Assembly (NCBI GenBank): GCA_047288015.1
Contig: CM103819.1
Coordinates: 32,689,354-32,753,353 of the forward strand
Length of the DNA stretch: 64,000 bases
Source: Mactra antiquata
Lineage: Eukaryota
Direction: 5' to 3'
Shown one piece after another: positions 40,437 through 64,000 of this stretch. The notes below the pieces were generated by a model that saw only the letters and a program-made list of their open reading frames with translations, was not told the origin of the DNA and made no database searches. How positions within the stretch are numbered: the first letter of the stretch is position 1; each line of letters opens with the position of its first letter. A program made the position numbers and the translations under genes.

Positions 40437-40481
40437 TATGAAAGTAACCATGGTGATGATAGTGGTGGTTATAGGAAACAG
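40437..40481 (+). CDS. PNISR: PNISR-like exon 5 (YESNHGDDSGGYRKQ)
   Basis: Acceptor TAATTGCAG, donor CAG|GTATTT. 45 nt, in frame between exons 4 and 6. Short exon, moderate confidence. Confidence 0.5.
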
Positions 40482-42899: not shown

Positions 42900-43011
42900 T
42901 TAATGAAGGTTAGAAGAATGCTGACAGAAGTGTTATTGGAAGTCACAGATAATGAATTATATAATGTTGCTAGGAGTGTTTACAATAGAGCTAAGGCAAA
43001 AAAATCTAAAG
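42900..43011 (+). CDS. PNISR: PNISR-like exon 9 (LMKVRRMLTEVLLEVTDNELYNVARSVYNRAKAKKSK)
   Basis: Acceptor TTATTTCAG, donor AAAG|GTAAGT. Matches human MMLLTKMLLTEILLDVTDEEIYYVAKDAHRKATKA. Confidence 0.85.
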
Positions 43012-44229
43012 GTAAGTCTATTATAGATGCCCACAGAATTAAGTATACTTTTGTGTTCATCATGCTTAATAACAGGTTTGTTTTTGATGATAATGGATGA
43101 ATTTAGAGTACTTTTTCTGGTGTGGGCTTTATTGATAGGTTTTGTGTGATCATAAATTGTTCTCAATATGTAATCAATTTTGGGTCTTACAAAGTGTGAC
43201 AAAATTGTGAAAAGGATTTATGCAATATGAGAGAACCACAGCATCAGTATTGAAGGTGTTTGAATCAACTGTATGAAGTACTTATCTGATAATGTCTTGT
43301 CCAATTTGTGTGCATGCGATGTAGCTTAATTGCTGTATATTCTTGAATCAAGGAAAGACCTTTTTTTGTTTGGATGTATTAAACTTGCTTTAATATCAAA
43401 CTTCTATTTCAGGATTGTTGTATGTTTATTCTATTATGTTGATTATAAATGTTATTTTCAGTGTTTTTCGTCTTGTATTCTGAAATTACCAGCTCTGTTC
43501 CTAGATTTTCTATGTATTTTATATTGAAATTTAACTACATTCTATTTGCAAATATTTTACTACAATTGACTATTTCGAGGAACGCCCTGTATTGTTGAAC
43601 TTGATGTCTTTTATCACTGTGTATATATCATGAAGTTATCTTTGATACCATAAATCATAAATAAATTTACAAACTTTCTATTGGTTTTCCTTTTATCCTT
43701 GTTTGGTGTTAACTGTTATAGAAGGGGGTCCTTTGAATTAGTAATCTGATTTGGGTTGGGTTTTTTCTGTTTAATGAAAATTGTAATTATTTTGATTTGT
43801 GTTAAATTGTTAGTAAATGCTTTGAAATAATGATGGTATTTTTTCACTGAATATACAGTAGTGTTGAGTAATAACTTTAATCAAGTCATTATATTTTATA
43901 GATTTTATTATTGATTGGGGTTTTTCTGTTAAAACTTTACTTCTGTGGAATTTAAACCCGAGAGACTTTTCTATGATACAACTTTTACTACTAATGGTAA
44001 AAAAATGAGGCCCCAGGGAAAATCTAAAAATAAACCCATTCACTTCTTTCAAGCCAAGGTGAGGGCTTGTACTATGAATATGTATGTACAAATTAAACAG
44101 CTTCCATTTTTCAGTAGAAGGATTAGATCTTCCAGATCTGTATTATATTGTATGATAAAAGCCTGGCTGGTTGCAAGGCTAGATTCATGTGTTGAGTATA
44201 TAACTAATGTTGTCTCTTGTATAACAAAG

Positions 44230-44283
44230 CTCCAGCAAGACAACTCGCCAAGTCAACTGCTTTGGCATCAATTACCTCCCTTG
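44230..44283 (+). CDS. PNISR: PNISR-like exon 10 (A-PARQLAKSTALASITSL)
   Basis: Acceptor TATAACAAAG, donor TTG|GTAAGT. Matches human APAKQLAQSSALASLTGL. Phase 1/1. Confidence 0.75.
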
Positions 44284-44936
44284 GTAAGTAATACGTTCTT
44301 TTATTACCATGATCATTGTATCATTTCATTGTATACTTGGTTTATGAGGTCAGGACACTGATGGCTCTGGGACATCCAGACCCCATCTAAGGAGAGTGTG
44401 TTTGTTTCTGATTGGTCATATAAAGTAGTTAGTGAACCCTGCATGTTGAGTGACACTTACAGGCCCCAAAGAGTTTACTGTGTTGTCTCTTGAAATTTAG
44501 CCCAAAAAATGCGAAAATGAAAGAAAAAATATCATAGCCAGTTAGAACTTTCTAAGATGAAGTTCATGATTGGTAACAAACTTACACGGTGCAATGAATG
44601 TTTTGTCTGTATATGAACAAATGAGAGTATTTATTCAAGTTAGTATACTGTTCATGTTCATAGTTTTTTTTTCTCTGAAAAAGAATGGGTTTGTATGGTT
44701 TGATTACTTCTTTATGGCTTAATTGGTATATAAAATGTTTCAATGAAAATGTTGAAGTATTTTTTACTGTGGTTTAATGATTATAGTAATGTTTCCATTT
44801 TTTAATATGTTCAAATTTTGTAGCATGCTTGGTGTTGAGGGTGTCTGGCAAAATCCTAGATGTGTTCAATTTTAGAGCACAAACTTACCTAATGAAAAAT
44901 TTTGGTATAGAAATTAACATTAGAATATTTTGACAG

Positions 44937-45152
44937 GTCTTGGTTATGGAAGTGATAGTGATGATGACGATGATGATGATGCCTATGACAAAACAAAGCG
45001 AGATAGTGATGAAGAATCAAGTAGTTCAGATGATGATGATGGTGATTATGAGATGAAAATTCGTAGAAAACGTGAATCATTTGATCGATTACAACGACGT
45101 CGTCTGGAAGAAATAGAAAGAGAAGAACAGGATATGATTAAACGTAAAAAAC
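44937..45152 (+). CDS. PNISR: PNISR-like exon 11 (GLGYGSDSDDDDDDDAYDKTKRDSDEESSSSDDDDGDYEMKIRRKRESFDRLQRRRLEEIEREEQDMIKRKK)
   Basis: Acceptor TTTTGACAG, donor AC|GTATGT. Resembles human GLGGLGGYGSGDSEDERSDRGSESSDTDDEELRHRIRQKQEAFWRKEKEQ. Confidence 0.75.
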
Positions 45153-45388
45153 GTATGTATGACTTGAACTTGTTCTTTATGTGTACTTAATACTTTTGAA
45201 AAATGATAGGATTTTACTATTGTAATATATTTGATATACTTATTATATATACACCCTGGTTACGAAGTAAGCAGTACAAGTTTGCACATCCTTTTTCTTA
45301 GCATGTTTAGTTATGCGTGTGAAAATGGCATTGTTCTGCCTTCAAGTTAAATAGATCAACCATGTGTATTATCTTTTTTCTCTTTCAG

Positions 45389-46547
45389 AGGAAATCCAGA
45401 ATACCCCTTCATTTCTTAAAGATCCTTTGTCCGAATCCCATAGTAAATATCCATTTCAGCGTCCTAGACATGGTGAGATTCCTGGTCTAGATGATAAAAA
45501 AGACCATAATAGTGAGGACTCTCATAGAAATAGTGATGTTAAAAAAGAGAGAAAGTTAAGTGAGGACCATGTTAAACATGAGGCAGGAAGAGAGAAAGCT
45601 AAAAAAGAGAAAACTGATCGACGTAATAAAAAAGAAAGTTCAAGTAGTTCTAGCAGCTCTGGGAGTAGTAGTAGTAGTAGTGACTCATCTAGTTCAAGTT
45701 CTGACTCCGATAGTTCAGGGTCCGAATCCTCATCTGAGTCTTCAGATGTAAAATCTAAGTCTAAACGTAGGTCTTCTAAAAATGATAAAAACAGTCGCTC
45801 TAAGAGTGATAGAGACAATAAGAAATCAAAAACTGAAAGAAATGTTAGAGTTGAACGTAGTGACTCTAATAGATCTACTAATAAATACAAAGATAAAAGT
45901 AGGAGAGAGAGTGAGAGAGACAGTAGAAAAATGTATGAAGATGACTCAGAGGATGAGAGAGAGGTTAGGAGAGTTGAAGTTAGACGGGAGAGCAAGTCTG
46001 ATAAATATATAGAGAGAAGTCGATCTAAGGATCGAAGTTCCAGAAAGAAAAACAGGGAAAGTGAGAGAAGTCGATCAAGGGAGAGATATAGGGAGAAAGA
46101 ACGTCCTAGGGAGAGAGATGATCATAGTAGGTCAAGGGAGAGAAGGAAGGAGAAAGAACGAAGAAGTCGATCTAGAGATCGGAGTGAGAGATTTAAAAGA
46201 GTGAAAGAAGAGAGAGATGAACGAATGAAAGAAAAAAAATATGACAGAAGTGAATCATTGGACACTTCTTATGATGACTATTATGGAGATAGTAGAAAAG
46301 TTAAGAAATCTAGACGACGTGATGATAGTGTTGATTCAAGAACCAAATCTAGCGGCAAGAAGAGACGAGCATCACGGTCAGACTCTTCAGAAAGTGAAAA
46401 CCATAGTAGATCGAAGCATAAAAAATCCAGCCGAGATGTAAGTCCGAGAGAATCCAAACATAAAAGTAGTCGACATGATTATGATGAGTATGAATATCAA
46501 GAGAGACGGGGTAAGAAGTCGAGTCACAAACGCAGATCTAGATCAAG
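45389..46547 (+). CDS. PNISR: PNISR-like exon 12: long RS/poly-Ser/RD/RE-rich exon (Q-EIQNTPSFLKDPLSES...SSSSSSSGSSSSSSDSSSSSSDSDSSGSESS...RSRSRERYREKERPRERDDHSRSRERRKEKERRSRSRDRSE...KRRSRSR)
   Basis: Acceptor TCTCTTTCAG at 45387-88. Matches the 456-aa ORF 45364..46734 in the track. Candidate donor CAAG|GTGGGC at 46548; if unused the ORF runs to the stop at 46734 through a hydrophobic low-complexity tail that does not look genuine. A downstream acceptor TTTGCAG|ATAA (46960s) would add one Arg codon then a stop. 3' end unresolved. Confidence 0.7.
45640..45745 (+). repeat. PNISR: Coding (AGT/AGC/TCN)n poly-Ser microsatellite within PNISR exon 12
   Basis: AGTTCAAGTAGTTCTAGCAGCTCTGGGAGTAGTAGTAGTAGTAGTGACTCATCTAGTTCAAGTTCTGACTCCGATAGTTCAGGGTCC... 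Confidence 0.8.
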
Positions 46548-46740
46548 GTGGGCAATTTATTTCATTTCTTTATTAGATCCATTATTGTTCATTAGAAAAA
46601 AATTCTTTTATCTGGCCTGTTCCAAATCTTTACCCGACATTTTCATGTCTGTCTTTTCTTTTAATAAGAGCTTTCTAAAACTGAAATTGCTCATTACAGA
46701 TGTGATATTTGTGAATCTAGATTTAAAAGCTTAAATTCTG

Positions 46741-46792
46741 ATTGATTGAACAATTAATTTATTTATTGATTGATTGATTGATTCTGTAACTG
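46741..46792. repeat. (GATT)n / TTTATT microsatellite downstream of PNISR exon 12
   Basis: GATTGATTGAACAATTAATTTATTTATTGATTGATTGATTGATTCTG. Confidence 0.7.
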
Positions 46793-49700
46793 AATCTTTC
46801 TGTCTAGCTTTAGGTAGGTAAGTTGAAGAAAGGGAGCCTATAGAAATTTAAGATTTGTCATTTATTTTTTTTTTCAAATTTTCTTTGATATTCTAACATG
46901 AACTCACCAGTTATGAACTCTGTGTTGGATAGGTATGGTGTTTTTCATTTGCAGATAATTTCCTCAGAGATGATGAGATTAATGGATGTTATACTCACCT
47001 GGTAACCATGGCAACCACTTACCCTGCTGATAACTTATCGTTTATATCTGTCATGAAATGTACATGTTGATTTGTAATTAAATTATTGAAAATATTCAGA
47101 TTGTTTTTTGACTATTGACTCCCTCAGGCTCACAAGGAAGACTGAGCTTGCCCAACTGTGTTGCCTCAGTAAATAAAGTCCTAACTTACTGGTATTTTCT
47201 TTTTGAATGTTTAACATGATGGAATGAAAAAAATATCAGCATGATAAAATATGACATCTTTCGTTGTTTAGTCTTCTCAAGCACTGGCTATTGGCCAAAT
47301 AAACCTCTTCAAATATCACTGTATATATGGCAATTTTGAACACTGATCTTGGTATTCTGATAATTTTTGTCTGCTGTTACAAACATTTTGGTTTTGACAT
47401 TTTATAACTGGTAAACTGACTGTGGACTCAAAACTCAGTTTTGTTTTCTAATTGTTTTTCTTTAGTAGCATATAACTATGAAGTAATTCATAGTAGTATA
47501 TAAGTATTATTGAAAGGATGTTAAATATATTCATTTTATCATGTACGATCCCTTATTTACAAAGAAATATCAGTGCTCAGGAATTTGAAATTTTATATCA
47601 AAACATAGAAAAATATTTTGTTGTCAATATATAAAATTTCAAGTTCCTGTGTTCAGTGGAACAAAACTTAATTTCTAGCTTTGAGTTGTTTCAAGTTTAT
47701 AACTTGGGCCTTGATCATTGTACAGTAGGTTATCATGCCTTGTGCAGGTATGGACATCATATATTGAACAAATATATTACCTCAAGAAATATTTTATAAA
47801 CTGCATGCTGATCTGAACCCAAGGTTATAAGACCTCTAGAACAAGCTCTATGCTCAAAACTCAAGTTTTGTCCTCAAGCTGTGTTTTTCTTAATCGCATA
47901 AAGACTTAGAAACTAGTTTCTTGTAGTATAGATATATTGTTGAACACTGCATTAAATTTTAGGTTTTTCAAATATAATGTATACTTACTAAGAAATCCAT
48001 TGAAAGAACGAATCTGAGTTTTCAGCATGGAGTTTGTTCTCAAGTTTTATAACCTCAGACTGGAGTCTCTACCTGTCTGTTGATATTTGGATATGCAAGG
48101 CCTTTGGATTTTGAGTAACTTTGATACCAGATGTTTAATTTGCTTCAACAGAACCACACACCACTTGATGTGACAGATGTTTACTTTATTACGAAAATAC
48201 ATTTCAGTTTGAAAGTAATTCTTACAGGATAAAGAATGTAGGAATTTGAACATGAATCATAAGGCTACGTATGTGCTGTCTTGATGTCAGGGTGTAAAGT
48301 CATAAGATATAATCTTGAAGCCACTCGACCGAACCAAGCACCTGTAAAACAGTTGTCAACTTGGGAGACACTTGACCAATCCATAAATCTGTTCACCCAA
48401 CATCAATCTAGAAGCAACAAGATGGATCCAAGAATCATGTTAAAGCAACGGACTTCAGATTCATCTGTTGATCTGTTGTGGAGCAACCAATATACCACTT
48501 TGTGTAATTTTATTTTATACCAATGGTGCACTAGACAAATAAAATTGAATTTGAATGTTAGTCTATAAATACATTGTCACAATGTAGAAAAAATTGTCTG
48601 TGCTCTGTTCATGTTCAGCCACTTAACATTGATATTCTCGTTCACACAACACAATCAGAATGTTTCATAAGTATTTATCATAACAAACACAGTAATAGAA
48701 AGTCATCAAATATAACTTTTCAAATGACCAATACCCGCGATATTTGATTGACTTGAGAAATGGGTACCATGAGAACTGTAGCTACTAAGGGAGGTAATTG
48801 TGTGAAACCATAATTTAAACACGGTTCATGTATACTTCAATATACTTTATACAGTAAAGTTCCGCTAAGACCACTTAAGTTATTTCAAAATCATGCGATT
48901 TTTGAAAATTATTTAGATCCAAATGCTTAATTTGTGAAGAAAAGGGTCCCTATGATAAGACCGTTTCGCTATTAAGACCACCAATTTTGCTGGTCTTAAT
49001 TAGTTCAAAGGCTCAGGACTCGCCTCGAATTTTCTTTGTAAACTGAAATTTTGCCCAAATGTTATTCAAACTAAAGATACTATAATTCCTATTTTCTAAA
49101 ATTAATCATTTCAAAAAGAATTTGTTAAAAGGAGTACGCAATCATTGATTGTGCTAAAATGCAGAAATAGATTTGTAACGTATATATTTTTTGACTTTTG
49201 ACAATCTTGATTCGCTTTTTGTATTTTGATCATTCCGAGAACAGATTTTAAGGTTCAGAAATCTTTGTGGCGGAATAAGACTAATGTCAATTATTAACGA
49301 GTACTTTTTCGTCTTATTTAAATCTTACTTTTTGCATAAATCTATTTTTAGCTAGGTCCACGTGGGTCTTGTCAGAAATCGCCCATTAATTGCGACAAAA
49401 CAAAATCTCTTACATCAGGAATATATTGGCATACTCATTTCAAGCTCAATGATAGATATATCATTTCTAATTGGTTAAAGAAAAAGTTGGACATAATGTG
49501 CCTGCAATTTGTTTAAATGGAGTCTGTGATAATTGCTGATACATAAAATCCCTTACTCGCCTGAGAAAAATGTGCGTTTTAAAGTTCTTTAACCGGGGTG
49601 TCTGGTCGTCTCGTTGGTTTTCAAAATGTTGGAAATGGGATCCAACGTAATATTTTGGTGTCTAGATCACCCTGTAAAAACTTGGGTCTTTGACCCCCAA

Positions 49701-51631
49701 AATAAAGTTTTAAATAGTCTGAATCATCCTCTGATTATGATTCCTTTAGATAGACTAAGGAATGTATTAGCTGGTAAGATTGAAATATGTACGGAGAACC
49801 AGACTTGACCTAGTTTGAATGTGATGTTAGGCTTGAGCAATGCAGTGCTCCGTCTTATTAAAATCCTCTCATAAATGGTTTTTGTACAACAGTCAGTTTG
49901 GGATTTGCTTCAAGCGTTGCTTGTATTGTGTCTCACGCTAAGACTATAAGTCAATTCTCGGGTGTTTGATTTATTTGTGTTACTAAAAGATTGATAAATA
50001 TTGCTAAGTTCTTCAAGTTCTAGATTTTTAAAACTTACATAAATATTTTCAATAAAAATAGGCCATACAACATTGTTGATACTTATCTCATACTTTTAAC
50101 AACATTACCTCAAAGTGACCCATGGAGAAATGAAAACTATGACCTAAAACTTCATACAAATTTTCTTTACGATCAGTTAACTCGAAAAGTCTTTAATTTC
50201 GAAGTTAATTATTACTCAAGTGTGCTCGAGTCTGTTCAAAATTTACCTAGGCTATTTAGGTTTAGCCTTGTGCGTTATTTTTTATGATACATATCAAATT
50301 TGGTTAATAAAATACTTTGATGTATTGATAGCAGATAATTGTTGGACACTGCGTACTTATTGGTACAAAATATATATTTTCAAATACTTTATTTGAACAC
50401 CATTAGATCCATACAGTTATAATGTCATTTTACAGACATCGACAGGTGACTTGTGGTAATGTATTTTTTAAAAAGACCTAAATGGAAAAACGAATGTGGG
50501 TAGCGATTAATCATAAATAAGTTGAATAAAAACTTGGCTTGCAATCCTCTACTTCATTGCCATCCAAAAGTTCCTTCACAGTGCGTTGAACTGAGCTACT
50601 ATATTTTCCATGTTCTTGTTTGAAGAATCATTATTTTATTATTTATTACAATTATTATTTATGCAATGAAGATACATTTCATTTATGTGTTGCAGCATTA
50701 ATTATCTGTCGGCCTCCAAAACCATAGTCAACAATACAACATATTTTAAGTTACTTTCGTTATCTCATATTCAGTAGAAAAATCTACTGATTTCCAAAAC
50801 AAAACTAAAAAGTATAGTTTAAAATGAACTTTTTGAATGAAAATTAGAGCTGTTTGAAAGTATGTTTTTACCATGTATAAATTGTGAATGAGTGAAGGTA
50901 CTTTCGAATGGCAGGGTATATCGATAAAAATATAGACATGAGTTGTAATACGCGTGCATAAGTAAAACTCATGCCATGCACACAGAACGGAAGAATTGAT
51001 AACCAAAAGTTGCACTAAGAAAAGTGTGATCATTTGAACATGGTGTTTGACAAAGGCGCAACTAAATGAGATGTTTATGTTTTAGAAAATCACAAAACAC
51101 CAACACGTAAATGAAAATGTTAATTAAATAGACTGAACCAAAAAAGGCAAAAAAAAACACATAAATTTAGATAATTCTGAACTTATATAATGTGTCAGCA
51201 ATGTAACACAATGTCCTTTCCTTAAGATTTGCATTCAGTGTGCTTACAAATAAAACGTATTATTTTCAAATTCATGCATTTATAATGAGATTGCTTAGTT
51301 ATGTGTGCTCGGAGGTTTCATTATACCAGTACATTTATATGTGTTACACATAAAATTTTGATTGAAAATGTAATTAGGTTTTTAACATAAACTCGACGAT
51401 CATTGAAGTTGAATTATTTTGATGAGATTTTATTACGTAATAAAATCAAGCTATGGGGCAGTTAGATAGACACTTTTATTTCCTCCGATTCTGGTGAACA
51501 CATGAATGAAATACAAAAGGAACATTTAGTTGATAACCTCGATTTAAAATATGACTTAAGTTATATCGTTTACCTTCGATCACAATGTGATAAAGGCAAA
51601 ATATTGTCAGTACTGGTGAGAATGGGACGTG

Positions 51632-51679
51632 CATTCGGAACGTCCTCGGCTCGGAAAATTGCCGAGAAAGTTCCGAATG
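51632..51679. other. 48-nt nested perfect hairpin (CATTCGGAAC..GTTCCGAATG outer stem; CTCGG..CCGAG inner stem)
   Basis: CATTCGGAACGTCCTCGGCTCGGAAAATTGCCGAGAAAGTTCCGAATG. 10-bp outer and 5-bp inner inverted repeats, GC-rich relative to the flanks. Confidence 0.5.
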
Positions 51680-52149
51680 TGGGACATGTTGGAATGACTT
51701 TGTCAAAATATAGTAAGTTAAAAGTCGTCCCTTATAATGTAACGTTAATTTAATACATGTTACGTATGAAATACACGTAGCCAGTGACATTAGAGTACCA
51801 AGAGGTTAAATCTAGATTATTGATCTGGATTCCACTTTACTTTGATAATCTCTGGGTTCCGAGAATTAGCCAATGACGGTTCCTGGTATTTTATCTTGGG
51901 GACTGGAGTGGACAACAAACGTACGTTGTACTTAGAAAACCCTTTTCAAATTGTTTGCTAGTTTTTTTTTGAAAATTCCCGAGTGTGGAGGGGTCCAGAA
52001 TCCCCTACAGTTAAAAGTCCGGTTTAAAGTCTACTTTCATGTACACGTTCAGCCGAATACAATTTTATACGATAACCCCAGAATGATTCATATATCAAAA
52101 TCACCTTCAAGTAAGCGACCCTCACTGTATCCATTCACCGTCTATGTAT

Positions 52150-52300
52150 AGAACGATTTATACCTGGGTTGAGTGAAGCAGTCGCGGGTAAATTTCTTGC
52201 TCAAGGAAATAAGCAGTGTTCCCCGTGAGATTCGAACCCGGGACCTCTCGATATCTAGCTAAGCTAGCGTTCTACCACTGGACTACTGCTCCATGAACTG
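52150..52300 (-). mobile_element. Truncated SINE family C copy (tRNA-like head does not fold into a canonical cloverleaf)
   Basis: The T-arm GGTTCGAATC is present but the flanking stem does not pair (CCGGG/CTCAC), so I call it a SINE head/pseudo-tRNA rather than a tRNA gene. Confidence 0.45.
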
Positions 52301-55300
52301 GATCAACATAGCCGTTGTTTCGTCACATATACGTGTATGTTATAATTGTTATTTGGCTTGAAATTTCAAGTTAGATTTTTTAATGAACGTTAAACCAACA
52401 AATCATCTGAAGGGTATATTGACATGTCAATGTGATTGTCGACTTCAATACACACGATAACTTTATAGAACATTTTTTAAGTTTTTTATAGAATGACAAA
52501 TTGTATCAAATTGTGGGACAAAGTATCGAAATGATTGAAAAACAAGTTTTATATGTAAATCATTAATATGAACTCTTTGAAAAAAAGTTAAAATACCTAC
52601 ACTTGGTAGCGTAATTTATGCGATAAAATATCAGCTACAACATTATGTCTAACTACGGCCTAGATGTCGATATAATGCAATCAGACTATGGTTAAAAAAG
52701 AAATATTGTTATGTTTTACTAAAAGTCTATTGACACTTTTAAATAAATGTTTAAAGAATATAATATCTTGATAACCGAGTGTAACCTTTACATTATATAT
52801 GTAAGAAAGTATTAATTTTTAAAAGGTTTAACGCTAATCTGCCTCAATTTGTTAACACAGGTGATTATCACCGACTTAATATTTCATAGTCTGACATAGT
52901 TTCCAATGCTTTAGTTTTAAGGACAGATTTAGTCAGCGGACTAGACCAGTGTGACTGAATTGGTAGATTTTAGTTTAAATGCTTTAAAAACGTTGAAACA
53001 TTGATATTGGCGCTATTGAATAGTTAACTATTTAACAAAAAAGCAACTTTTAAAGTTTAAACCGATTGGGTTACATTTAATTTGAAATTCGGTAGATGAA
53101 TAATTAACATGTTTTTTGCTCAAAAAGGATAATATATATACGATATTTAAATTTGAAAAATAAATTACTGGTATAATAGACTCATTCATATCATAATGAC
53201 TTTTTTATGTGTGTGAAAGAATCAAAGGGACGTCTATATAATGTGTTCAGTAGGCCGACCATGAACCACTAGGAAATGGATTGAGAACGTTCAGTATGTA
53301 TTTTCAATTTTATTTTCTAAATTTCTATAATCTATAAATTGTCTTTTTTAACTAGTACATATAATAAATGACTGATATTCGTCATGTTCTGGCTGTGGCA
53401 TTTAATCCACAGACATCGGGATTGCAAAAGCTCACCCCTTGGACCCATTTACAAAACAGGAAGCCAATTTTCAAGCACTGTATTCGACACCATTGCTCGT
53501 AATATTACGATTATATGTAATTTTATATTGTTAAAATACTGGATTACTGTGTTGAAAATGGGACTGAAAGGGATTCTTGCATGCTGGATACCTGTGATTT
53601 AACTAGGATTCTTGCAAGCCCATCTAATACACTTTAAAAGTAAGTCGGTGCAAAGTTGGTCCCATAATTCTTTTTTACTAAAGTAAAGGGTTAGGGCTAA
53701 ACCTAAAGTTTTCACAGACTCATATGTTTACATTACTCATAGTCCACTATTATAATAAATCAAGTTGTCAAATAATAGTTACTACGCTCGAATTGTCTTA
53801 CTAAACGTAATTGTCCTGTACGGAGACAATACTGTCTATCTCAGAATATTGTTTTTTATTTAATATAAGATTATATAAATCAATTATTCAAGGTATCAAT
53901 ATATTTCACTTCGAAACAAACCTGGCTGGCGCTTATACAACGATCGTTATGTAAAGGGATAGGAAATTATACATCCGAGTACTTGAAGAACCCTTTCATT
54001 ACATTGACCTATACGGTAACATTTTGCTCCCTGGTATAAAGTACATATACAATGTATTTCTAAATTCAACATTTCTTGCAGTCGAGAATAATGATTTCCT
54101 TCTATTCCGAATGTAACAAATTAGTAATTGATGTTTTCCTCTTATAATCTTAAGAGAAACGCGATTTAATCAACTCTTTCATTACTTTGTTGTTAGTTTA
54201 TTAGGAGACTATACTATGATTTTATGAGTAAATAAAATTACTGGCTACTCTTCCTGATATTGCTCCCTTGAATGTTTTTACTGAAGTTGCCATAATTAGA
54301 ACATAACTGTTTGCTTAGTAATGACCTGTAAAGCTATTGACCGGGTACTCATGGTCTTCCGATAAAACGTATTGGAATTGCTTTCACTTTTTTATTTACT
54401 ATTTACTTATTCAAATAGTACAGATGACACAATTTGTAATCCATTTACATATGTTTCGAAACAGTCACAGCAGAGCTAAATCTTGTTTTATGGAACGGTG
54501 TCTTTCTACGGACTGTGACAAGTACCTTCTAGTTGTAGTTCGATCAACCAACGATTCTTCTGGTATCAAATTTGATATAAAGAAAATTATAATTATAGTG
54601 GTTAGAAAGGCGTTGAAATGTCAAATTCGGTCAACCAAATTTCTACCCTGAATATACAGTTAGATGTCTTGTTAAATCATCCACCCGTTTATAAAAGTTA
54701 CTTCCCATGCTCAAAACAGAATGCAAGACAGACCTCATCTTTATTTGGCAACACTATACCTCAGCATAATGACGTACAAAAACTCAAAACTTGTGTGACC
54801 CATTATTATACTTCAATGCTTGTCTTTGTGGTACTATTTAAAAGCATTTTGTTTCAGCATTCGAATAATGCATTCTGAACTCTTGGCAATCTTGAATGGT
54901 GGAACAACGGCAAGTTTATAGGTCCGTGGTAGAACTAAATAACATATGCGCATTTTTCGGTGATTGAAGATCATCGCATAATGTTTTCTTTATCATTTTG
55001 TCAAAAAAACTCGAAACGTACAATAGTGTCATATTTTTTGAATAAATACCATATACGTTTTTTATTTATGATTTATTTAACACAGACGAAGATATTTTTT
55101 GTTCTTGTTGACTATTTAAATAAGCGACAAATATTGCAAAGTCGTCTTTCAAAATATTTGTTTAACCTCTAATGTTTACAAAATTTGCGTTTTTGTCGAA
55201 CTGCAATTGCCATTTTTGTCACCCATTGCCTCAGTTATGACCTTGACGTTCATTCAGCTCTGTAAAAATATAGTCAGCTCAAAGAACGCTGAAAGTAGCA

Positions 55301-55525
55301 TTCAACAACGGACGACTAAAGGTGGTAAATAAACACCAAACATAATAAAGCCATGTACTTATTTTTTTGGTAGAGTTAAATATTTGATCTTTGATTGCAA
55401 TCGGCTTGATATACCTTATACAGGGTTCTGTGAAACAATAGCTGAAGGTTTAAATACCGCCATTGAATTAATGTTTAATACTTTAAATAGAAGCAAAGTT
55501 AGATTGTATCATGTAAGGTTTATTA

Positions 55526-55701
55526 CAGTGAAACCTGAGAAGTACGAACCTTGAGACATCTGAAGTCTCAGAATTCTGAACGATTTTCTCAGTCTGATTT
55601 TTAACATCCGATTGCAAAATAAACTTGAGAAATCCGGAAAACTGTGAAGTTCGAACTTATTGTCAGGTGTCAAAGGTGTTCGGATTTCTCGGGTTACACT
55701 G
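55526..55701. mobile_element. 176-bp MITE, TIR CAGTG(A/T)AACCTGAGA, TA TSD (copy 1)
   Basis: TA|CAGTGAAACCTGAGAAG ... CGGGTTACACTG|TA. Related copies at 57530 and 59631. Confidence 0.65.
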
Positions 55702-56107
55702 TATCAATGTAAACAAGTCAAGGGTAGCATATTTTTAATATCAAATACCTGCATTTAGACTTGAATACATATCATCGTGCACCTTTATTGTTTTAAGCAT
55801 AAAAACATGAGATAAGAGGTTTTTATAGGACGCCGGAAAAGGAAACACGCTATAAGATTTAAAAAAGAAATGGTTAATATACAATACATGCTCAAGCTTA
55901 GATCGACTATGCAGAGGTTCATGTCTGATTTTCAAATGATTTCAAAATATCATTAAAATTGTATTAAGCGCATGTTAAAATTAAAACGTATGACAATATG
56001 AATAAAATGATAAAATTTAATCTTTTGTGTGGTAAGACTCTTTGAATACACCCACCGTCATGTTTCCCCGGGAACAGCTAGTTTATTTTAGGTCCTCCAG
56101 TGTTTAT

Positions 56108-56390
56108 GTTGTCCGCCAGGTTAACTCAGTCGGTAGCGTGTCCAACTGCTAATCCAGAGATTTTAGGTACGATTCCCGGAGGGGGCCAACCTACCTTCGT
56201 GGAATTTGGTCATGGAGTACATATACTTTCCACAGTCATTCTCTCTCCTACCTCTGTATCAAGTAGGGCAGTTGTCGGCTACTGGCGATGGTATGTGCTC
56301 AGTACTGGTGAAAAGCTTAGATCTAGAGATCTAAACCGCTCCAGGGACAGTCAGTAGGTCGGGTGACCGTCGTGACATGACTTAAAATTT
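56108..56390 (+). mobile_element. SINE family A copy
   Basis: GTTAACTCAGTCGGTAGCGTGTCC..GGTACGATTCCCGGAGGGGGCC head plus the shared body. Track ORF 56100..56357 is spurious. Confidence 0.65.
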
Positions 56391-57529
56391 CCAGAAGAGC
56401 GTCGTAAAGCTCTAAAAAACAAACTAAAGTGCTCCAGTACATTCAATAAAATGGGTATAATAGACACATACATGTTTGACGTATAGATTTATAGTTTGAT
56501 ATATTGACAGGAGCTGACTTTAGCTTCAACCCGTCAATATGTATTTTGAAATCTTTTGGTGGTATGGTCGATATAGGACAGGTGTGAAATCACTTCATTT
56601 GTTATCTATACATGTGCAGTCATGTCTTTCAGTAAATCTTGTCAATGATGTATTGATTCTTTTGTTTTTTTACGTAAATCTCACTTTGTTGTCAATGTAC
56701 CTCTTCAAATCATTGTCATTTGGTGGAGGAGCCTAAGTATACATAGTTGCAGTTCCTCATGTAACGTGCTAGTGAGGAGAAGAAACGACTCTTGTATAAA
56801 TTGATGATCAATAATATCTAAGCACCATCGCCTGTACTCTTCCACTATGGAGAGATAAAATATTTGGTGGTCAGCTGACCGTAGTTCGGAACCCATCCAA
56901 AGCAAGATGGTGTATACAGAATACTTGCTAGTCTATTTTCTACTAACCTGTTTAGCTCAATTGTAAAACAATTTCTTGCCACTTATATTAATAAAGCTCG
57001 AGTCTGCTACCTGATCCCTCAATACTGAGTTATCTGGATAAAGTTTCTTGCTGAAGGGGATACAGGGATAACGATGTGGGTTTGGAAAGAATTCAAAGTA
57101 ACTGGGTGTTGCCCATCGTAACTGCTCGATCACGATCATTCTTTTTGAAAACTATTCATTTTATTGACGATAAGTTATGACTCAAGTGAAAAGAGAAATT
57201 ATATGTTCTTTTCCGTTCCGTTCCGGTGCATTGAAATAATATGTTGCAACATTCTTAAAGCAACTTGTACCACGATGAGACATTATCAAAATATTTGATT
57301 TAAAAATCTATCAAAGTTTGATATACATCGTTAACATTTATACATACAGACACCATGGGGTCTTTAAAGCAATATAATCATGTATGATTGATTGGACATG
57401 AAGTATCATTAAATCCTTTAGTTGTCTGTAAAGTGAGGTAGTTTAAACTGTTGTTGAATAGATTATATCATTTATTACTGCCTGAAAACCATCAATAGAT
57501 TTAAGATCATAAACTAACTGGGTGATATA

Positions 57530-57705
57530 CAGTGTAACCTGAGATTCAGACCTTGAGGAATCCGGATTCCTCTGATCTTCGAACGATTTTCTCGGCCCAA
57601 CTTCGGATATGAGAACATGAACAATGCTCTGAGAAATCCGGAAACGTGTAAATTTCGTACATGTAGTTTGGCCCAGAAGGTGTGCGGATGTCTCAGGTTA
57701 CACTG
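57530..57705. mobile_element. 176-bp MITE of the same family, TIR CAGTGTAACCTGAGA, TA TSD (copy 2)
   Basis: TA|CAGTGTAACCTGAGATTC ... GTCTCAGGTTACACTG|TA. Internal TCGAACGATTTTCTC ... GAGAAATCCGGAAA shared with copy 1. Confidence 0.7.
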
Positions 57706-59299
57706 TATAATGGTAAGCTCAAGTAAAAATTTAGATTTAATATGCTTGAATTTTGTAGTTTTAAGATTTTTTTAAAGAGTGGAACTACTAGTTTGGCCAA
57801 TTCATTCATGATGCCACATAGGCGATCGACATGACTTTTTGTCTACAACAATTCAATTTATCTTATCCTTTTGATTTGCTTTATTTTAAATTTAAAAAAT
57901 AACAAAATAATCTTGGAGCGAGCGACGAACGGGTGCAAAACCTTTAATCTAGTTCGCAAGTGTCAGTTTAATTAACAACGGGAAATAGCTCTTTGAACAG
58001 TCATTACATTGGCTCTATTAGACTTTTCACATTGACCATAAACAAGGAATCAGTTAACCACAATGTATAGTAACATAATCCGGCCTCAGATGTTTCAAGC
58101 TGTCTCACGGTACATATTAACAAGCTATAAAAGCTTATCATAAAACTCAGGTATCGATATCAACTAGTATAGTAAACAGGCATGAAACGTTCTTGGTAAC
58201 ATTCAGAAGTACATGTTTCTCATTGAATTCCAGACTTTACGTTAATTACTGTTTATTTAGTGAATGTTATATCTAACGGTAGAATTTCAATACATTTGTT
58301 ACAATAGATTTCCGTTTGCCTTACCTCCTGTGTGTTCCTGGAACATTGAACTTTTTTAGCTATTCGATCTCATTGTCGTGACCATTTGTCTCTGACATAC
58401 AACATTTGACCGTTTTAGTTACTTAATATAGGAAATTGTCTCATTTTTATTTACCATCTAAACAGGAATACATTTGTTTAATGTTGCGTTCTCTACCATG
58501 ACCAATCATACTGTTTAACTAAATATATTTACCACAACGGTTCCAAGAAAATAAACAAAAGTAAAAAAATATTCATAAAATATTCAATACCGGTTTTATC
58601 TATTCTCAACAGTCCTAATATACACAGAGTAGGTCTATTTCATTTCGTCAGATCAATTAGACTAAAGTACATGATCTTCCATGGTTGGAAGATCTGATAT
58701 TAAGCACCTATTACAAAGTATATTAATAGAAATTGGAATTTACAAATTTAAAAGTCAGACAATCAGAGATTGCACCCCATCTACGATTTGGCTTAATGTT
58801 AAAATTAAATTTCTGCCGTGCAAGGCTCTGACTGGTTAACTTGACTTTCAGTAGAAGACATTCCTATGTATGACCTCTTAACCCTCGGACCGTAGCGGTA
58901 TATGAGGGTATGGTTTGAATCAGATTGATCGTCTGAACATCTTGTCATAAAACTAGCAAATTCATAAAAAAGACACAATACACGAAGATTTTTATCGTAA
59001 GGACGTATGGTTTGCCTCTTGTTATTTATCGCATAAATGTCACGGCCTCATTAACAATGTGGCATAACTTTAATCAAGTAATTATGTCTGAAGATTGGTT
59101 GAATTATTTCACATAACGTAACAATGACCTAGTACACTAATTTTACCGCAAATTACAGTTAAGTCGAACACTTGAAAGATCTTAAAAAAGAAAACAAACT
59201 TAAGAAATAATCTAATGAGGTATAGTTATCAAATACTATTCCTTATACGTGCTACCTGTACCTCGTGGGTGTTTTACTATGTGCCAAGTTAATCTATTT

Positions 59300-59585
59300 A
59301 TGTCTTTATAAGTCCCAGGTCTGTGGCGCAGGGGTAACGCGTAGGTTTTCAAATCTAGTATCCCGGAGGGGTTGATGATTCGAAACCCACCTGAGCTGGT
59401 TATAGCCTTCCAAGAAAATTCAACCATAATATCTATTTTCCTCCATAAATAAGATTTATGTAAAAGTTGTCGGCCTTGCGGAATGGTAGATGAGTACTAG
59501 TTATAGACAAGGGCCAGGAAAGCTGGGTTAGGTGCGCTGACCGCCGTAAAATGACGATAATTTGTATTAACATGGCGTTAAGCCA
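59300..59585 (+). mobile_element. SINE family B copy (plus orientation)
   Basis: GGTCTGTGGCGCAGGGGTAACGCGTAGG..GGTTGATGATTCGAAACCC head; body is the reverse complement of TTGGATTTAATGCC...CCTTCCACAAGG units. Confidence 0.6.
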
Positions 59586-59630
59586 AATCAATCAAGCAAT
59601 CATGTCTTTATAAAGTCAATGAAGTGTATA

Positions 59631-59777
59631 CACTGTAACCTGCGAAATCAGGAATCCACTGAATTCTTGACGAAGTTTGCTCCTAATGCGGGCTTTCAAA
59701 TGCAAATGAACTTACGAAACTTGTAAAATCAGAGCTTTCTGGTCAGTCCAAAGTGTCCAAATTCTCAGGTTTCATTG
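59631..59777. mobile_element. Diverged/truncated copy of the same MITE family
   Basis: CACTGTAACCTGCGAAATCAGG ... TCTCAGGTTTCATTG, flanked by TA. A further internal fragment lies at ~61860-61990. Confidence 0.45.
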
Positions 59778-60256
59778 TATTGAAGTTGATACAGTTGGGA
59801 CATTTATTCTTGTCTTTGATTCGTTTTGAATCAAGAAAGTCTAATTCAGTTGATACAGTACATGAAGTCAGCCCACACCTTTAACCATATTTTCTCACAT
59901 TTACTTTACAAGAAAGTATTAATGAAGGTATAAGATGTAGTATTACTGGTCAATCTAATTTTTGTATTTAATTTCATGGATTTATGATTTATAACAAATG
60001 ATTAATTTATTCTGTAATGTAGCTTAATCCAAGATTTAGAACTGTAGCCAAATTTTGTTAATAATTTACGCTTGATTACTACTGCTGGTGTTAACTCAAT
60101 TAATTCTGTAGGTTCATGCAAATGTCATATTTGTTATTATACAATGACTAGCACTAAGCTAAACAACCTTGAAAATAATGAAACAAATTTTAAAAAATGA
60201 AGTAAAAAATCACTAGTTGTAGTCAATTTATTATTAATATTTTCCAACATTTTCAG

Positions 60257-61402
60257 GTGATGACCAAAAGTCAAGAAACTGGACTTTCAGTAGACAATAT
60301 GCCGGAAATTCCCGACTACTCGGCGAACTATGACGGATACGCTCGACTATCACCGGCATTCATCGAGCCAGTCTTCGAAGATCCATACCGATGTCCGGTA
60401 TCCACTCCAACCGTCTCCCGGCAACACAGTTCCACTAATTTCCGCCATACACAGGGACCATTTATTGCTTTCACTAGCTTGAACAGAAGTCTTCAAATAC
60501 CCAATCATATTTCAACACCAAAACATTCTAAATATAGAAATGTCAAAACGAGGCCGGTCGCCAAACCACAGAAAAAGAATTTTGATTGTTATTTTGTTAA
60601 AAATGTTGACAAAAATATTCACATAGACGCACAGACGCATGGATCAACATGGCTGAATACATTATGTGCCCAACCAGTTGACGAAATATTCGGTAAATAT
60701 AAACGCAAGTCTGAAGTGAATTATCTCTCCCGCCAGACGCCGAGAAGCAAGAATTCAACACCTGGCGAGAAAGCGTTGATGTCTGCATGGTCTAGTAATG
60801 CTTCGAATAGAGGAACCCCTTCTGTTATGTCGAAATCAAATAAATCTATTCCTTTGACAGCGTCCAGGAAAAGTTCTAAATCAGTTTTTGTTGAACCAAA
60901 TGTTCGCGCTGTCGGATTTGACCCCGATCCAGATAGGTTTGTAAATAACATTGGGTTTGCACTAGTTCCGGTGCCTTCCCCTACTGGTTATGACACTGAT
61001 GATGCAACATTTACCATGACGTCATCAAGAGATTCTCCTGTGTTTCAAAGGGTGTTCAGAAATAATTATACTAATCAACCAAATGACGCTGTAATAAACA
61101 ATACATATTACGAACCATACCAGCGAGACAAAAGATTTCCGGAAATTCGTCGCCGGAAGTCGGCATTGTCTCCGACGCGCAGGCGCATTCCACAGGAAGC
61201 CAAAGAAGCGGTTTCAACTTCGGTCACCAACCTTGTCAAACAGGATCTGGAGGAAAGCCCTATACACATCGTTACAATTGGACAAGCATTCCGAAACAGC
61301 CCGGAACCGATAAAGAGCACCCTACCCGTTTCACGACAGTGTTCATATCGTCTGCCTAAATCGCTTTCAATGTCACTTCCGGAATTGCACGGAGCTGGTT
61401 GA
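60257..61402 (+). CDS. Uncharacterised 381-aa single-exon ORF (MMTKSQETGLSVDNMPEIPDYSANYDGYARLSP...), Ser/Thr/Pro/Arg/Asn-rich, probably intrinsically disordered
   Basis: Longest uninterrupted ORF outside the two annotated genes. Noticeably CpG/GC-richer than its surroundings. An acceptor-like TTTTCCAACATTTTCAG lies directly upstream (60240-60256). Basic clusters RRRKSALSPTRRRIP. I recognise no homology. Confidence 0.45.
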   Translation: MMTKSQETGLSVDNMPEIPDYSANYDGYARLSPAFIEPVFEDPYRCPVSTPTVSRQHSSTNFRHTQGPFIAFTSLNRSLQIPNHISTPKHSKYRNVKTRPVAKPQKKNFDCYFVKNVDKNIHIDAQTHGSTWLNTLCAQPVDEIFGKYKRKSEVNYLSRQTPRSKNSTPGEKALMSAWSSNASNRGTPSVMSKSNKSIPLTASRKSSKSVFVEPNVRAVGFDPDPDRFVNNIGFALVPVPSPTGYDTDDATFTMTSSRDSPVFQRVFRNNYTNQPNDAVINNTYYEPYQRDKRFPEIRRRKSALSPTRRRIPQEAKEAVSTSVTNLVKQDLEESPIHIVTIGQAFRNSPEPIKSTLPVSRQCSYRLPKSLSMSLPELHGAG

Positions 61403-62636
61403 CTTTATTTGTCATCAACCGAAGACACTATTTGTGTTTTCATGTTTTATATACATGTACGTACTTAAGTATAATATAATTATTTCATGATACGTTTCTG
61501 GCTTGCTCGACTTAATCATTGAAACTGGAACTTACTTCAAAAGTATACAGTTGTAAAGTTCAGCCATTTAATAACTTACTTTTCGGATGTTACTTTCTAA
61601 GACAAGGAAGCCAACCTGGACGTGTTATTTGTGCCAATATTATACATGTATATGCTACACAGTCTTATACCTTTTTCAGGAAAAAAATTGTTACTTTCGA
61701 TTTGCTTTTTTTAATGTGAACCATTGTAGAGCTAGTAAATGAATGATTACAAAATTGAGCACATTGTTACGATATGCATTTGAAACACTACAGAATAAAA
61801 AGTGCAAATGTCACTATAAATAGATTCTATCACAACACAGTGTGACTATAGATATTTGAACCCATGAGAAATCTGACATCATTTGAATTTCGAATGATTT
61901 TCTCCGTCCAATTTTGGAAGTTCGAAACCCTGAAAAATTCGGACATTTATTAAATCGGTTCACTATTTGTTCGATTCCAAAAATGTTTACTTTCTCAACT
62001 ACATGATGTACACTTTACATATACACGTGTAACAGACATTCATTGGAAGGCACGCTCCGTATATGATATACAGTATATATATATACATGTATATTATTAT
62101 TTGCTTAGTCATGAAATCTGCTTTTTTAAAGAAATACATGAAGGATTAATTTATGTGTTATTTTCTCTCTTTTGCACATAAATCACTGCTGTTATTGTCA
62201 TTAAAGTGTCTTTAATATACTATAAAATGTTTAAAACAAGTCTTCAATAACTCATACCTTTGCATGTGATATATCATAAATTAATGAGTTTAAAATGACT
62301 TGAAATGGGTATTAGCAACTTCGCAAGTCATTATAAATGCATAATAACTAAAATTACATTCCTCCATATGTTTTCTAAGTGACCTGCATTATATTTCAAA
62401 GTAAGATTTATTTTCGTTTGCTTCCATACACTTATTAAAGGCAAAATTTAGGAATAGTGTCGTGACCACGTAACTGATAAGAGCTTTGAACATAGTGATG
62501 ATGGATCAAACAATATATGATTCGAACATGTAACTGCATTCACTCTGGTGCCAGGGGCTCGTTCAGTTCTTGCCCACTAAGCTTACAAAACAGCATATGG
62601 ATTATCAAAGGTTTGAAGCGTACTGGTACCTGCACG

Positions 62637-62756
62637 CGCATCCACATGTGCATGTATGCAGGTATCTGGTTCATGATGGGTACCGATAATAAACATCCAC
62701 ATGTGCATGTATGCAGGTATCTGGTTCATGATGGGTACCGATAATAAACATAACAT
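62637..62756. repeat. ~58-bp tandem duplication
   Basis: CCACATGTGCATGTATGCAGGTATCTGGTTCATGATGGGTACCGATAATAAACAT repeated twice. Confidence 0.7.
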
Positions 62757-63587
62757 TTTGTACTTAACATATAATTGTTTCCATGATGGTATAAAGTTTT
62801 ATAATTCTACCATACATTCTTAAGCAAATCCATGATCGTTACATAGCGTTCAGTCTCAATGTCAGTGGTCGTGCTAAGTCCTAACCCTTGTTCGAGTCTC
62901 TCAAGCTACACTACCTAGAATGTTATGTGTATGTGTATATCCCTTGTCAAATGGATATATGTACCTGTCAACCCATGATTACTAACGGGACAGGTTGTCA
63001 TGGTTTCCAATCTATGCTCTAGAACCTTGCTTACCTCTGGTGTTCTAGATTGACGAATAATTTGTACCGTAGACGAAATAGAAGTATGAACATAAAATTA
63101 TGTATTTTTTATCTATCACATTTTGACAGTTTTCGGTACTTATATAGTCAGCTATATGATTATAACACGCAATTTAACTTTTATTCTAAATTGTGGAAAA
63201 TTGGTTGATTGATATAGGAAATTTTAAATACGTGACACGTTTAGGTTTTTCGACAATATAATGGATCGGTTATTATTTTTTTTAAGTTTAAGAAATTATG
63301 TAAATTGTATTATTTGTCTTTACAAGCATATTACCGCTAACCTTGCTAAATAAATTGTGTTATTTTTTGTAAATTTTCCTATAAATAAATATTTGATTTA
63401 TTTAATTCAAAATTTTCAAAACGAAATTAAAATGCTATTTATTTTGTTAATAAAGAAAATAGGAACTTCAATAATCACGCCTTTGTGTCCTTCATGAATG
63501 GTAGAAATAGCACAACATTTGAGCTGTTCAAAGTACATGTAATTGCACCAAATATTTGTCGGTTAGTAATCTAGACACCGCGAAACC

Positions 63588-63805
63588 TGTCAGACCGTCA
63601 GGCATGTCTGGTAAATTTTCGTCCGGTCTGACAACAATTGCCAGATTGCCTGACTTCATGTCTGGCATATTTTAGACCGTCCAAACCGGAATTTACACTG
63701 GATGATGGGACCGGTCTGACAAGTTTTTTCAGTCTGACAAAAGTTTTAGGCTTGTTAGACCGAAAGTCTGACAGATCCTCTGTCAATTTTGTGGTGTCTG
63801 ACAGT
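63588..63805. promoter_or_regulatory. Dense cluster (>=7 in ~210 bp) of the octamer GTCTGACA/TGTCAGAC, both orientations
   Basis: TGTCAGACCGTCAGG, CCGGTCTGACAACAA, GACCGGTCTGACAAGTT, CAGTCTGACAAAAG, AAGTCTGACAGATCC, GTGTCTGACAGTCCC, GTCTGGCA variants. Contains SMAD-type GTCT/AGAC cores and TGACAG. Confidence 0.4.
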
Positions 63806-64000
63806 CCCGCGTGAAATTCCTTCAGGCACTGTGAATTAGCTTTTATAAACTGTTTTCATATTTATAATGTGACTAACCTACATTTAATCTTTTATTTCTA
63901 AGGGTTGGTTTTCTCAGAGGTAATTTATTTCATTTTTTATCGATGTTGAAAACTTGAGCTCGATTTAACATTTATGTATGAAGTAAACATGTTATTGTAT

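Follow-up and report, generated by a model that had tools for sequence, protein, structure and literature searches.

A conserved, unnamed mollusc gene in Mactra antiquata, with a single coding exon and a product predicted to be mostly disordered

The stretch of DNA analysed here comprises 64,000 nucleotides of Mactra antiquata (contig CM103819.1, positions 32,689,354 to 32,753,353 of the forward strand; hereafter, the window). Near its 3′ end lies an open reading frame (ORF), which an earlier note, made from the letters of the window, had described as a CpG-rich, intronless frame for a protein with no recognisable homolog. The ORF is very probably a bona fide single-copy gene, consisting of one coding exon behind a conserved 3′ splice acceptor, that belongs to an old, unnamed mollusc family and has a product predicted to be mostly disordered. 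The sequence string quoted in the earlier note is present, and the ORF is a genuine protein-coding exon. The lack of homologs, on the other hand, did not survive the homology searches, which gave an exact GenBank match and orthologues throughout the bivalves and gastropods. A chromosome-level assembly of Mactra antiquata, a surf clam, has been described (PMC11897284); the protein and its orthologues are already catalogued in public databases, and the object itself is not new.

Coding status and family of the ORF

The coding sequence (CDS) and the acceptor that adjoins it are placed as follows.

60260–61402, plus strand: complete CDS, 380 amino acids plus TGA; GenBank hypothetical protein ACF0H5_008164, at 100% identity and coverage
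60240–60256, plus strand: polypyrimidine tract plus AG, ttttccaacattttcag; 3′ splice acceptor of an intron in the 5′ untranslated region (UTR), ending 3 nt 5′ of the ATG and presumably used in Mactra

The first ATG, at 60260, gives a protein of 380 amino acids that ends at the TGA of 61400–61402; the ORF call, 60257 to 61402 on the plus strand, reaches 381 amino acids when begun at an in-frame GTG, at 60257. From stop to stop, the frame extends over positions 60206 to 61402 and counts 398 codons; only one other open frame in the window, over all six reading frames, is longer. It is single copy within the window, and the GC content of the CDS at codon positions 1, 2, and 3 is 0.47, 0.46, and 0.38.

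The first homology search returned 19 homologues in addition to the exact match, the GenBank entry “hypothetical protein ACF0H5_008164 [Mactra antiquata]”. Identity is 73% to a Logan contig, 58% to Mercenaria, 50% to Dreissena, 49% to Mya, and about 32% to the scallops Argopecten and Mizuhopecten, so that the orthologues span 73–30% across bivalves and gastropods; every one is named “uncharacterized” or “hypothetical” at its source. E-values to other bivalves run from 1e-180 to 1e-13, and the family profile recognises the Mactra protein with an E-value of 1.4e-101. An exhaustive HMMER search of 1.84 billion cluster representatives with a profile of 19 bivalve sequences produced 39 matches only, and extra members were named through cluster look-ups and a second profile search. 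The named bivalve members come from Mercenaria, Dreissena, Mya, Potamilus, Mytilus, Crassostrea, Saccostrea, Pecten, Ylistrum, and other pectinids, and the named gastropod members from Haliotis, Gigantopelta, Littorina, Babylonia, Biomphalaria, Bulinus, Lymnaea, Elysia, and Plakobranchus. Among the 1.84 billion representatives, the HMMER profile searches gave no named match outside Bivalvia and Gastropoda. The family thus appears to be found only in molluscs (bivalves and gastropods); it is unnamed and uncharacterised, and for 18 of its locus and protein accessions no mention in the literature was found.

Family members include LOC123551669 (Mercenaria mercenaria), LOC127853202 (Dreissena polymorpha), LOC128238881 (Mya arenaria), LOC110455122 (Mizuhopecten yessoensis), LOC111099916 and LOC111100028 (Crassostrea virginica), LOC124127400 (Haliotis rufescens), and LOC106060546 (Biomphalaria glabrata). 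These RefSeq and GenBank orthologues, at 58–30% identity, are alike in their length of 330–410 amino acids, in the order of the invariant motifs, in having a single large coding exon behind an acceptor, and in a high observed-over-expected value for CpG (CpG o/e). There is no essential difference between them and the Mactra gene, the C-terminal half (motifs E to G, below) being well conserved among heterodont bivalves only; Dreissena and C. virginica differ from Mactra in having two copies each. Mactra itself shows the three features by which the family is recognised: similarity over the full length, four ordered motifs, and a one-exon CDS behind an acceptor that is probably used.

In Dreissena polymorpha, the two coding-exon copies stand in tandem, ~6 kb apart, at 36316–37449 and 42282–43415 of contig L003, and are ~90% identical in DNA, the sequence 5′ of the acceptor included. 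A weak match, P0048 (UniParc UPI00078A3EDC, 258 amino acids), covers part of the family core only, with RTWLKSLCSQPVNEI and NTPGEAAL; the remaining family motifs are all missing from it, and it represents either a mistaken gene model from a mollusc or the sole hint of a more distant relative.

The closest relative of the Mactra sequence is contig L001, from a related clam, in which the CDS (positions 96–1238) likewise encodes 380 amino acids. Between the two, the ratio of non-synonymous to synonymous substitution (dN/dS) is 0.088, with pN of 0.153 and pS of 0.694 by the Nei–Gojobori method. Mismatches at codon positions 1, 2, and 3 amount to 0.19, 0.12, and 0.51, and the alignment has two gaps only, of 6 nt each. 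The blastn similarity is confined to 60251–61402, starting 9 nt 5′ of the ATG and ending exactly at the stop codon, while the 5′ and 3′ flanks align at ~41%, which is the random level. By this pattern of substitution, the Mactra antiquata CDS is under strong purifying selection. A dN/dS comparison and the fate of the reading frame in related species had been proposed in the earlier note as checks; the former gives purifying selection, and the frame is kept.

That the ORF is a chance open frame in non-coding DNA, in which stops are rarer through locally higher GC, has practically no probability left: the window is AT-rich and higher GC does lower stop frequency, yet 398 open codons beat all simulations, substitutions have a three-base periodicity and indels come in multiples of three, dN/dS is low, more than 40 orthologues match in length and motifs, and similarity stops precisely at the stop codon. 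The benchmark consisted of 100 first-order Markov simulations of 64 kb each, with the longest open frame recorded; with the composition of the window, this frame had a mean of 130 amino acids and a maximum of 193, and with the richer composition of the ORF, a mean of 195 and a maximum of 287. Since the observed frame is longer than every simulated maximum, the ORF is not a product of chance, and the dN/dS, the codon-position pattern, and the limits of similarity already refute that explanation.

Conserved motifs, predicted disorder, and a possible function

Conservation within the family is concentrated in short islands, with fast-evolving linkers between them. Seven motifs can be placed on the Mactra sequence.

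60386–60409, plus strand: motif A, YRCPVSTP, amino acids 43–50; invariant in 19 bivalves and containing the invariant Thr49-Pro50
60572–60598, plus strand: motif B, KKNFDCYFV, amino acids 105–113; family consensus [KR]N-x-DYY[FY]V
60647–60715, plus strand: motif C, TWLNTLCAQPVDEIFGKYKRKSE, amino acids 130–152; predicted helix-Pro-helix with a basic KYKRKS cluster at its end
60755–60799, plus strand: motif D, STPGEKALMSAWSSN, amino acids 166–180; Thr167-Pro168, then a predicted helix; pattern STPGEKALxxAWSSN
61109–61189, plus strand: motif E, YEPYQRDKRFPEIRRRKSALSPTRRRI, amino acids 284–310; basic cluster with Ser301 and Ser304-Pro-Thr-Arg
61250–61282, plus strand: motif F, EESPIHIVTIG, amino acids 331–341; alternating hydrophobic stretch after Ser333-Pro
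61340–61399, plus strand: motif G, C-terminal, CSYRLPKSLSMSLPELHGAG, amino acids 361–380; YRLPK..LS.SLPEL (YRLPKxLSMSLPELxG) in heterodont bivalves

The four ordered motifs of the family are found in Mactra as YRCPVSTP (amino acids 43–50), KNxDYYxV (106–113), WLxxLCxQPVxEIxxKY (131–147), and STPGExxLxxAWxxN (166–180). Over 31 molluscs, motif A has a mean identity of 0.86 to the Mactra residues. In motif B, K106, N107, D109, and Y111 are invariant among bivalves, and Y111 is nearly so among molluscs. Motif C, with the pattern TWLxxLCAQPVDEIFGKYKRKSE and the family form WLxxLCxQPVxEIxxKY[KR]R, is the most conserved segment of the family, W131, L135, P139, V140, E142, and I143 being invariant in the 31 molluscs. 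In the same set, T167, G169, E170, and N180 of motif D are invariant, and P168 and W177 nearly invariant.

The C-terminal motifs have a narrower distribution. The full form of motif E, YEPYQRDKRFPEIRxRKSxxSPTRKRI, is found mainly in heterodont bivalves, although its P294 is invariant in bivalves; the tblastx segment that coincides with it (61109–61189) is 85% identical to Dreissena, and its Ser304-Pro-Thr-Arg fits the [ST]Px[KR] pattern of cyclin-dependent kinase (CDK) type. Motif F, with the pattern ESPxxIVxIG, is kept as ES[PA][IM][HQ]I[VI][ST][IV]G mainly in heterodont bivalves. In motif G, L373 is nearly invariant, and [KR/x][LF]Px[IL] can be made out at the C-terminus as far away as the gastropods, which have LPxI/L near their C-terminus. 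As for the Ser/Thr-Pro sites, T49-P and T167-P are invariant, while S31-P, S259-P, S304-P, and S333-P are kept in 63–84% of the 19 bivalves (S304-P in 84%, S333-P in 63%); KRKS is kept in 74%. The basic clusters that had been pointed out earlier, RRRKS and KRKS, are present at amino acids 297–301 and 148–151.

The protein is rich in Ser (11.8%), Pro (9.2%), Thr (7.4%), Arg (7.4%), Lys (6.3%), and also Asn, with an isoelectric point of 9.7 and a grand average of hydropathy of −0.75. The description of it as a low-complexity Ser/Thr/Pro/basic protein was right about compositional bias and wrong about complexity in the SEG sense: the entropy of 12-residue windows has its minimum at 2.36 bits, and none of the 369 windows falls below 2.2 bits, compared with 115 of the 445 in a neighbouring arginine/serine (RS)-rich exon. 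No hydrophobic segment was found (the highest 19-residue Kyte–Doolittle mean is 0.49), and there is neither a membrane segment nor a signal peptide, the first 30 residues having a mean hydropathy of −0.81. A secreted shell-matrix protein, or another secreted mollusc-specific protein, was considered and rejected, given a sequence without an N-terminal signal peptide.

The AlphaFold2 model of the full-length protein has a mean predicted local distance difference test score (pLDDT) of 46 and a predicted template modelling score (pTM) of 0.16, with 277 of the 380 residues below a pLDDT of 50. It contains only four short helices, between amino acids 131 and 181; those at 131–135, 140–146, and 150–157, in the region of motif C, are of low confidence. 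When the core (amino acids 36–190) was modelled with 40 sequences, mean pLDDT was 59 and pTM 0.25, and only the helix after STPGE reached ~81. Searches for known folds and domains were negative throughout: Foldseek gave no fold match in the PDB; Pfam gave no match at E ≤ 1 for the Mactra protein and nothing consistent for 31 family members, whose scattered single matches all had E ≥ 0.047; and sequence searches of the PDB with full-length and core profiles gave none, the best E-value, 1.5, being noise. The protein is predicted, then, to be basic, soluble, non-secreted, and mostly intrinsically disordered, and the earlier suggestion of a probably disordered product agrees with the low pLDDT of the full-length model.

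It could also be proposed that amino acids ~100–185 make up a small folded helical domain, either new or a highly diverged form of a known type, with disordered tails. Conservation is densest precisely there, the four helices are consistent in the two AlphaFold2 runs, one of them at a pLDDT of ~81, and a packed core typically has invariant residues like the W, C, P, and W seen here. Nevertheless, pLDDT and pTM of the core stay low even with 40 sequences, and neither Foldseek nor the Pfam and PDB sequence searches matched it to anything. We regard such a domain as unlikely, though to be taken seriously.

For a mostly disordered protein with invariant islands, we tentatively suggest the role of a regulatory adaptor or scaffold built from short motifs. 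The islands YRCPVSTP, DYYFV, WLxxLCxQPVxEIxxKY[KR]R, and STPGE..L..AW would be docking motifs for partners. Binding of the partners would be switched by proline-directed kinases, acting at the invariant T49-P and T167-P and at the frequent S31-P, S259-P, and S304-P-x-R, and also by basophilic kinases, acting at KRKS and RxRKS. The basic clusters KYKRK and RRRK...RRR make nuclear localisation plausible. The analysis shows that the gene is real and conserved, how it is structured, its CpG pattern, and that no fold is confidently predicted for its product; we infer the disorder-based adaptor role, the phospho-regulation, the localisation, and the expression class alike. In a broader form of this proposal, which we hold just as tentatively, the family would have originated in molluscs, no later than the split between bivalves and gastropods, and the core together with YRCPVSTP would constitute an undescribed interaction module with a proline-directed phospho-switch, working in a tissue- or stage-restricted pathway. 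If true, such a molluscan interaction module would deserve to be studied functionally and to be entered as a family of its own.

Disordered, phospho-regulated adaptors and inhibitors that work through short motifs are a known class, of the 4E-BP, DARPP-32/inhibitor-1, and ENSA/ARPP-19 type. Like its members, the Mactra protein is small to medium in size, basic or Ser/Thr/Pro-rich, and predicted to be without a stable fold, and it has a few invariant short islands with S/T-P or basic-x-S sites. Its STPGE superficially recalls the TTPGG of 4E-BP, and RRRKS..SP recalls the RRRRPTP of DARPP-32. The resemblance is one of architecture only: there is no sequence homology and no Pfam or PDB match at E ≤ 1 to 10, and the YxxxxL-phi eIF4E motif, a conserved RVxF, and FDSGDY are all lacking. 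Among known linear motifs, PxIxIT/LxVP (calcineurin), SxIP (EB1), 14-3-3 mode I/II, eIF4E-binding YxxxxL-phi, and the KEN and D-box degrons were rejected on conservation or pattern grounds.

Several points weigh against the account given here, of an old mollusc-restricted gene for a disordered adaptor. No invariant island matched a verifiable class of curated linear motifs, and PP1 docking through RVxF was rejected: RAVGF (amino acids 216–220) occurs in Mactra only, with RMVGF in L001 and RVYGY, RVHGH, or RIQGF in other bivalves. The whole of the adaptor model is drawn from composition, motif conservation, and low AlphaFold2 confidence, and AlphaFold2, given 19–40 sequences, may simply be unable to resolve a small domain that really exists at amino acids 100–185. 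The restriction to molluscs is a negative at the sensitivity of HMMER, profile–profile comparison with all eukaryotes not included. A search with a core-only profile (alignment A4) returned one fragment and no known members; since it missed the known members, it is uninformative and is not evidence of absence. Evidence of transcription was sought in Logan and ENA contigs (L001, L005–L015), with none direct for Mactra, every contig retrieved looking genomic. Finally, the 5′ exon of the Mactra gene could not be located, DNA-level conservation being limited to the CDS, nor could its promoter be placed.

Splice acceptor, upstream exons, and 3′ end

The polypyrimidine–AG acceptor at the 5′ end of the ORF had been recognised in the earlier note, and comparison among species confirms it. 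A pyrimidine tract with AG lies 0–9 nt 5′ of the ATG also in L001, Mercenaria (L002), Mya (L004), both Dreissena copies (L003), L005 (an oyster-like contig), L011, and L013 (a scallop-like contig), so that an acceptor adjoining the ATG is conserved in the eight taxa examined. A pyrimidine tract with AG precedes the ATG in all of the contigs L001 and L005–L015. In Dreissena, the RefSeq isoforms X1 and X2 start with MALPSRYPGIQ, which is encoded at L003 10001–10033 and followed by a canonical gtatgt donor; this upstream exon is spliced to the acceptor 32 kb downstream, to give ...aag/CGA ATG ATG (the slash marks the junction). Since the acceptor is conserved, and is used in the Dreissena model, the Mactra ORF should be the last exon of a spliced gene, and an intron in the 5′ UTR is indicated. 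As read from these alignments, the gene is composed of an upstream exon or exons, mostly non-coding, and one terminal exon with essentially the whole CDS. The term intronless, used earlier, is therefore correct for the CDS alone and does not apply to the gene, for which the conserved acceptor and the Dreissena splice model indicate the upstream exon or exons.

How much protein lies upstream is a separate matter. The earlier note supposed that the ORF may be the terminal exon of a longer gene; the gene is spliced and the ORF is its final exon, but no much longer protein is involved, upstream exons adding at most ~10–35 residues in some isoforms. A substantially longer protein, with coding exons further 5′, inside the window or past its edge, that might even be those of PNISR, a neighbouring gene described below, would accord with an acceptor that adjoins the ORF and with a frame that is open across it, GTG 60257 being in frame; some isoforms of Dreissena, Argopecten, and Mytilus do gain ~10–35 N-terminal residues from an upstream exon. 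These added pieces, however, are short and lack conservation from one species to the next. In the annotation of Mactra, as in nearly all orthologues, the protein has 330–410 amino acids and begins no more than a few residues away from the same Met, and for this reason the exon does not form the end piece of a much longer protein. PNISR, for its part, ends in an RS-rich exon of its own; the domain that contains it is CpG-depleted and comes to an end near 48 kb. A longer protein is accordingly very unlikely, and we retain a terminal exon that holds essentially the whole CDS.

When the window was compared by blastn and tblastx with the Mercenaria, Dreissena, and Mya loci, there was no conserved 5′ exon or other non-coding match, the CDS alone being aligned. 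On the 3′ side, one pattern match can be given.

61794–61799, plus strand: first AATAAA past the stop codon, 392 nt downstream; candidate poly(A) signal, by pattern match only

Three observations concern the acceptor in other species. The “MSLQ” of P0017 (L013 1373–1384, atg tct tta cag) arose when an automatic gene caller read through the acceptor, and the 65-residue N-terminal extension of P0014 (L012 222–404) is likewise a read-through of the acceptor on a genomic contig; both are artefacts and not isoforms. In L011 (940–1012), a possible donor, ccag/gtgcgt, lies only ~65 nt 5′ of the acceptor, which suggests a very short 5′-UTR intron there, as against the 32-kb intron of Dreissena.

CpG content, age, and genomic neighbourhood

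The ORF is richer in GC (0.437 versus 0.331) and in CpG (o/e of 1.13 versus 0.55) than the window as a whole, as had been noted. Its surroundings were nonetheless mischaracterised as a CpG-depleted intergenic region: CpG o/e is 0.87 at 49001–60239 and 0.86 at 61403–64000, that is, ~0.87 in the local domain of 49–64 kb, and depletion is confined to 1–32 kb (0.34) and 37–48 kb (0.33), where the bodies of two other genes lie. All of the nine orthologous CDS examined have a CpG o/e of 0.95–1.65, with flanks at 0.83–1.1. Because they are all CpG-rich, the predicted germline hypomethylation would be a conserved property.

In oysters, low CpG o/e predicts germline-methylated genes with housekeeping functions, and high CpG o/e marks genes that are predicted to be sparsely methylated and among which signalling, adhesion, and inducible functions are enriched (Gavery & Roberts 2010, PMC2996979). 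With an o/e of ~1 in its CDS and flanks, the Mactra gene is like the high-o/e class of bivalve genes (PMC2996979), which is a statistical class in which it is placed by CpG o/e alone; the neighbouring PNISR and VIT-domain genes, with an o/e of ~0.33, resemble the low-o/e housekeeping class (PMC2996979). The gene thus sits in a CpG-undepleted domain, which begins at ~49 kb and extends as far as the window does, and is predicted to be hypomethylated in the germline, as is typical of non-housekeeping genes in bivalves. The conjecture that it is germline-unmethylated and tissue-restricted was in this respect reasonable, since the high CpG o/e would fit the predicted hypomethylated, non-housekeeping class.

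The accompanying idea of a recently acquired gene or retrogene has to be given up. A recent intronless retrogene, or a transposable-element derivative that is CpG-rich because it is young, would explain a CDS in a single exon and a CpG o/e of ~1.1; against this, the single coding exon and the acceptor adjoining the ATG are common to heterodont clams, oysters, and scallops, and the family reaches the gastropods. The deep conservation of both gene and structure refutes a recent or retrogene origin. Moreover, in Mercenaria and Dreissena alike, the locus is flanked by an IIGP-type GTPase gene on one side and by GWT1 on the other, there are no transposon or reverse-transcriptase domains and no second copy in the window, and the high CpG o/e is common to all orthologues and to the flanking 15 kb, so that it would reflect methylation state and not youth. 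We find a young retrogene scarcely credible. No multi-exon relative appeared in any homology search, and there is no obvious A-tract downstream of the stop codon.

The value of these results is mainly corrective: a CpG-rich ORF that seemed to be an orphan, and possibly young, turns out to be a catalogued gene that is old and well conserved, and its CpG content would mirror the mosaic gene-body methylation of bivalve genomes rather than a recent origin. As one among many conserved mollusc-restricted proteins without a Pfam family, a structure, or a literature, it is of modest residual interest. Its sharp invariant motifs, two of them with Thr-Pro sites, make it a tractable candidate in surveys of lineage-specific mollusc regulators.

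Two other genes were recognised in the window. An orthologue of PNISR (arginine/serine-rich) occupies 37000–48000 on the plus strand; its exon at 41458–41778 matches PF15996 (E = 5.7e-20), and its RS/SD-rich exon at 45364–46734, which is truly of low complexity, is the longest open frame in the window (459 codons). Its gene body has a CpG o/e of 0.33 and a positive GC skew. On the minus strand, at 1–32000, lies a VIT-domain gene (PARP4/VWA5A-like), whose exon at 16353–16820 matches PF08487 (E = 1.2e-23) and whose body has a CpG o/e of 0.34 and a negative GC skew; the skew therefore flips sign between the two genes. Rfam gave no RNA family anywhere in the window.

Neither GWT1 nor IIGP was detectable as a neighbour in the Mactra window, and synteny with Mercenaria and Dreissena could therefore not be confirmed. 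In Mya arenaria (L004), an MMS22L gene call at 1–10176, on the minus strand, runs into the start of the orthologous CDS on the opposite strand, with an overlap of 176 nt. This neighbourhood matches neither Mercenaria and Dreissena, with their IIGP...GWT1 arrangement, nor Mactra, with PNISR, so that synteny is only partly conserved.

Between the two divergent, CpG-depleted gene bodies of the window, a 4-kb block at 33001–37000 has a CpG o/e of 1.28 with an ordinary GC content of 0.34 and no ORF of 90 or more amino acids. The block could represent a promoter shared by both genes or an intergenic region, unmethylated in either case; a young insertion is the other possibility.

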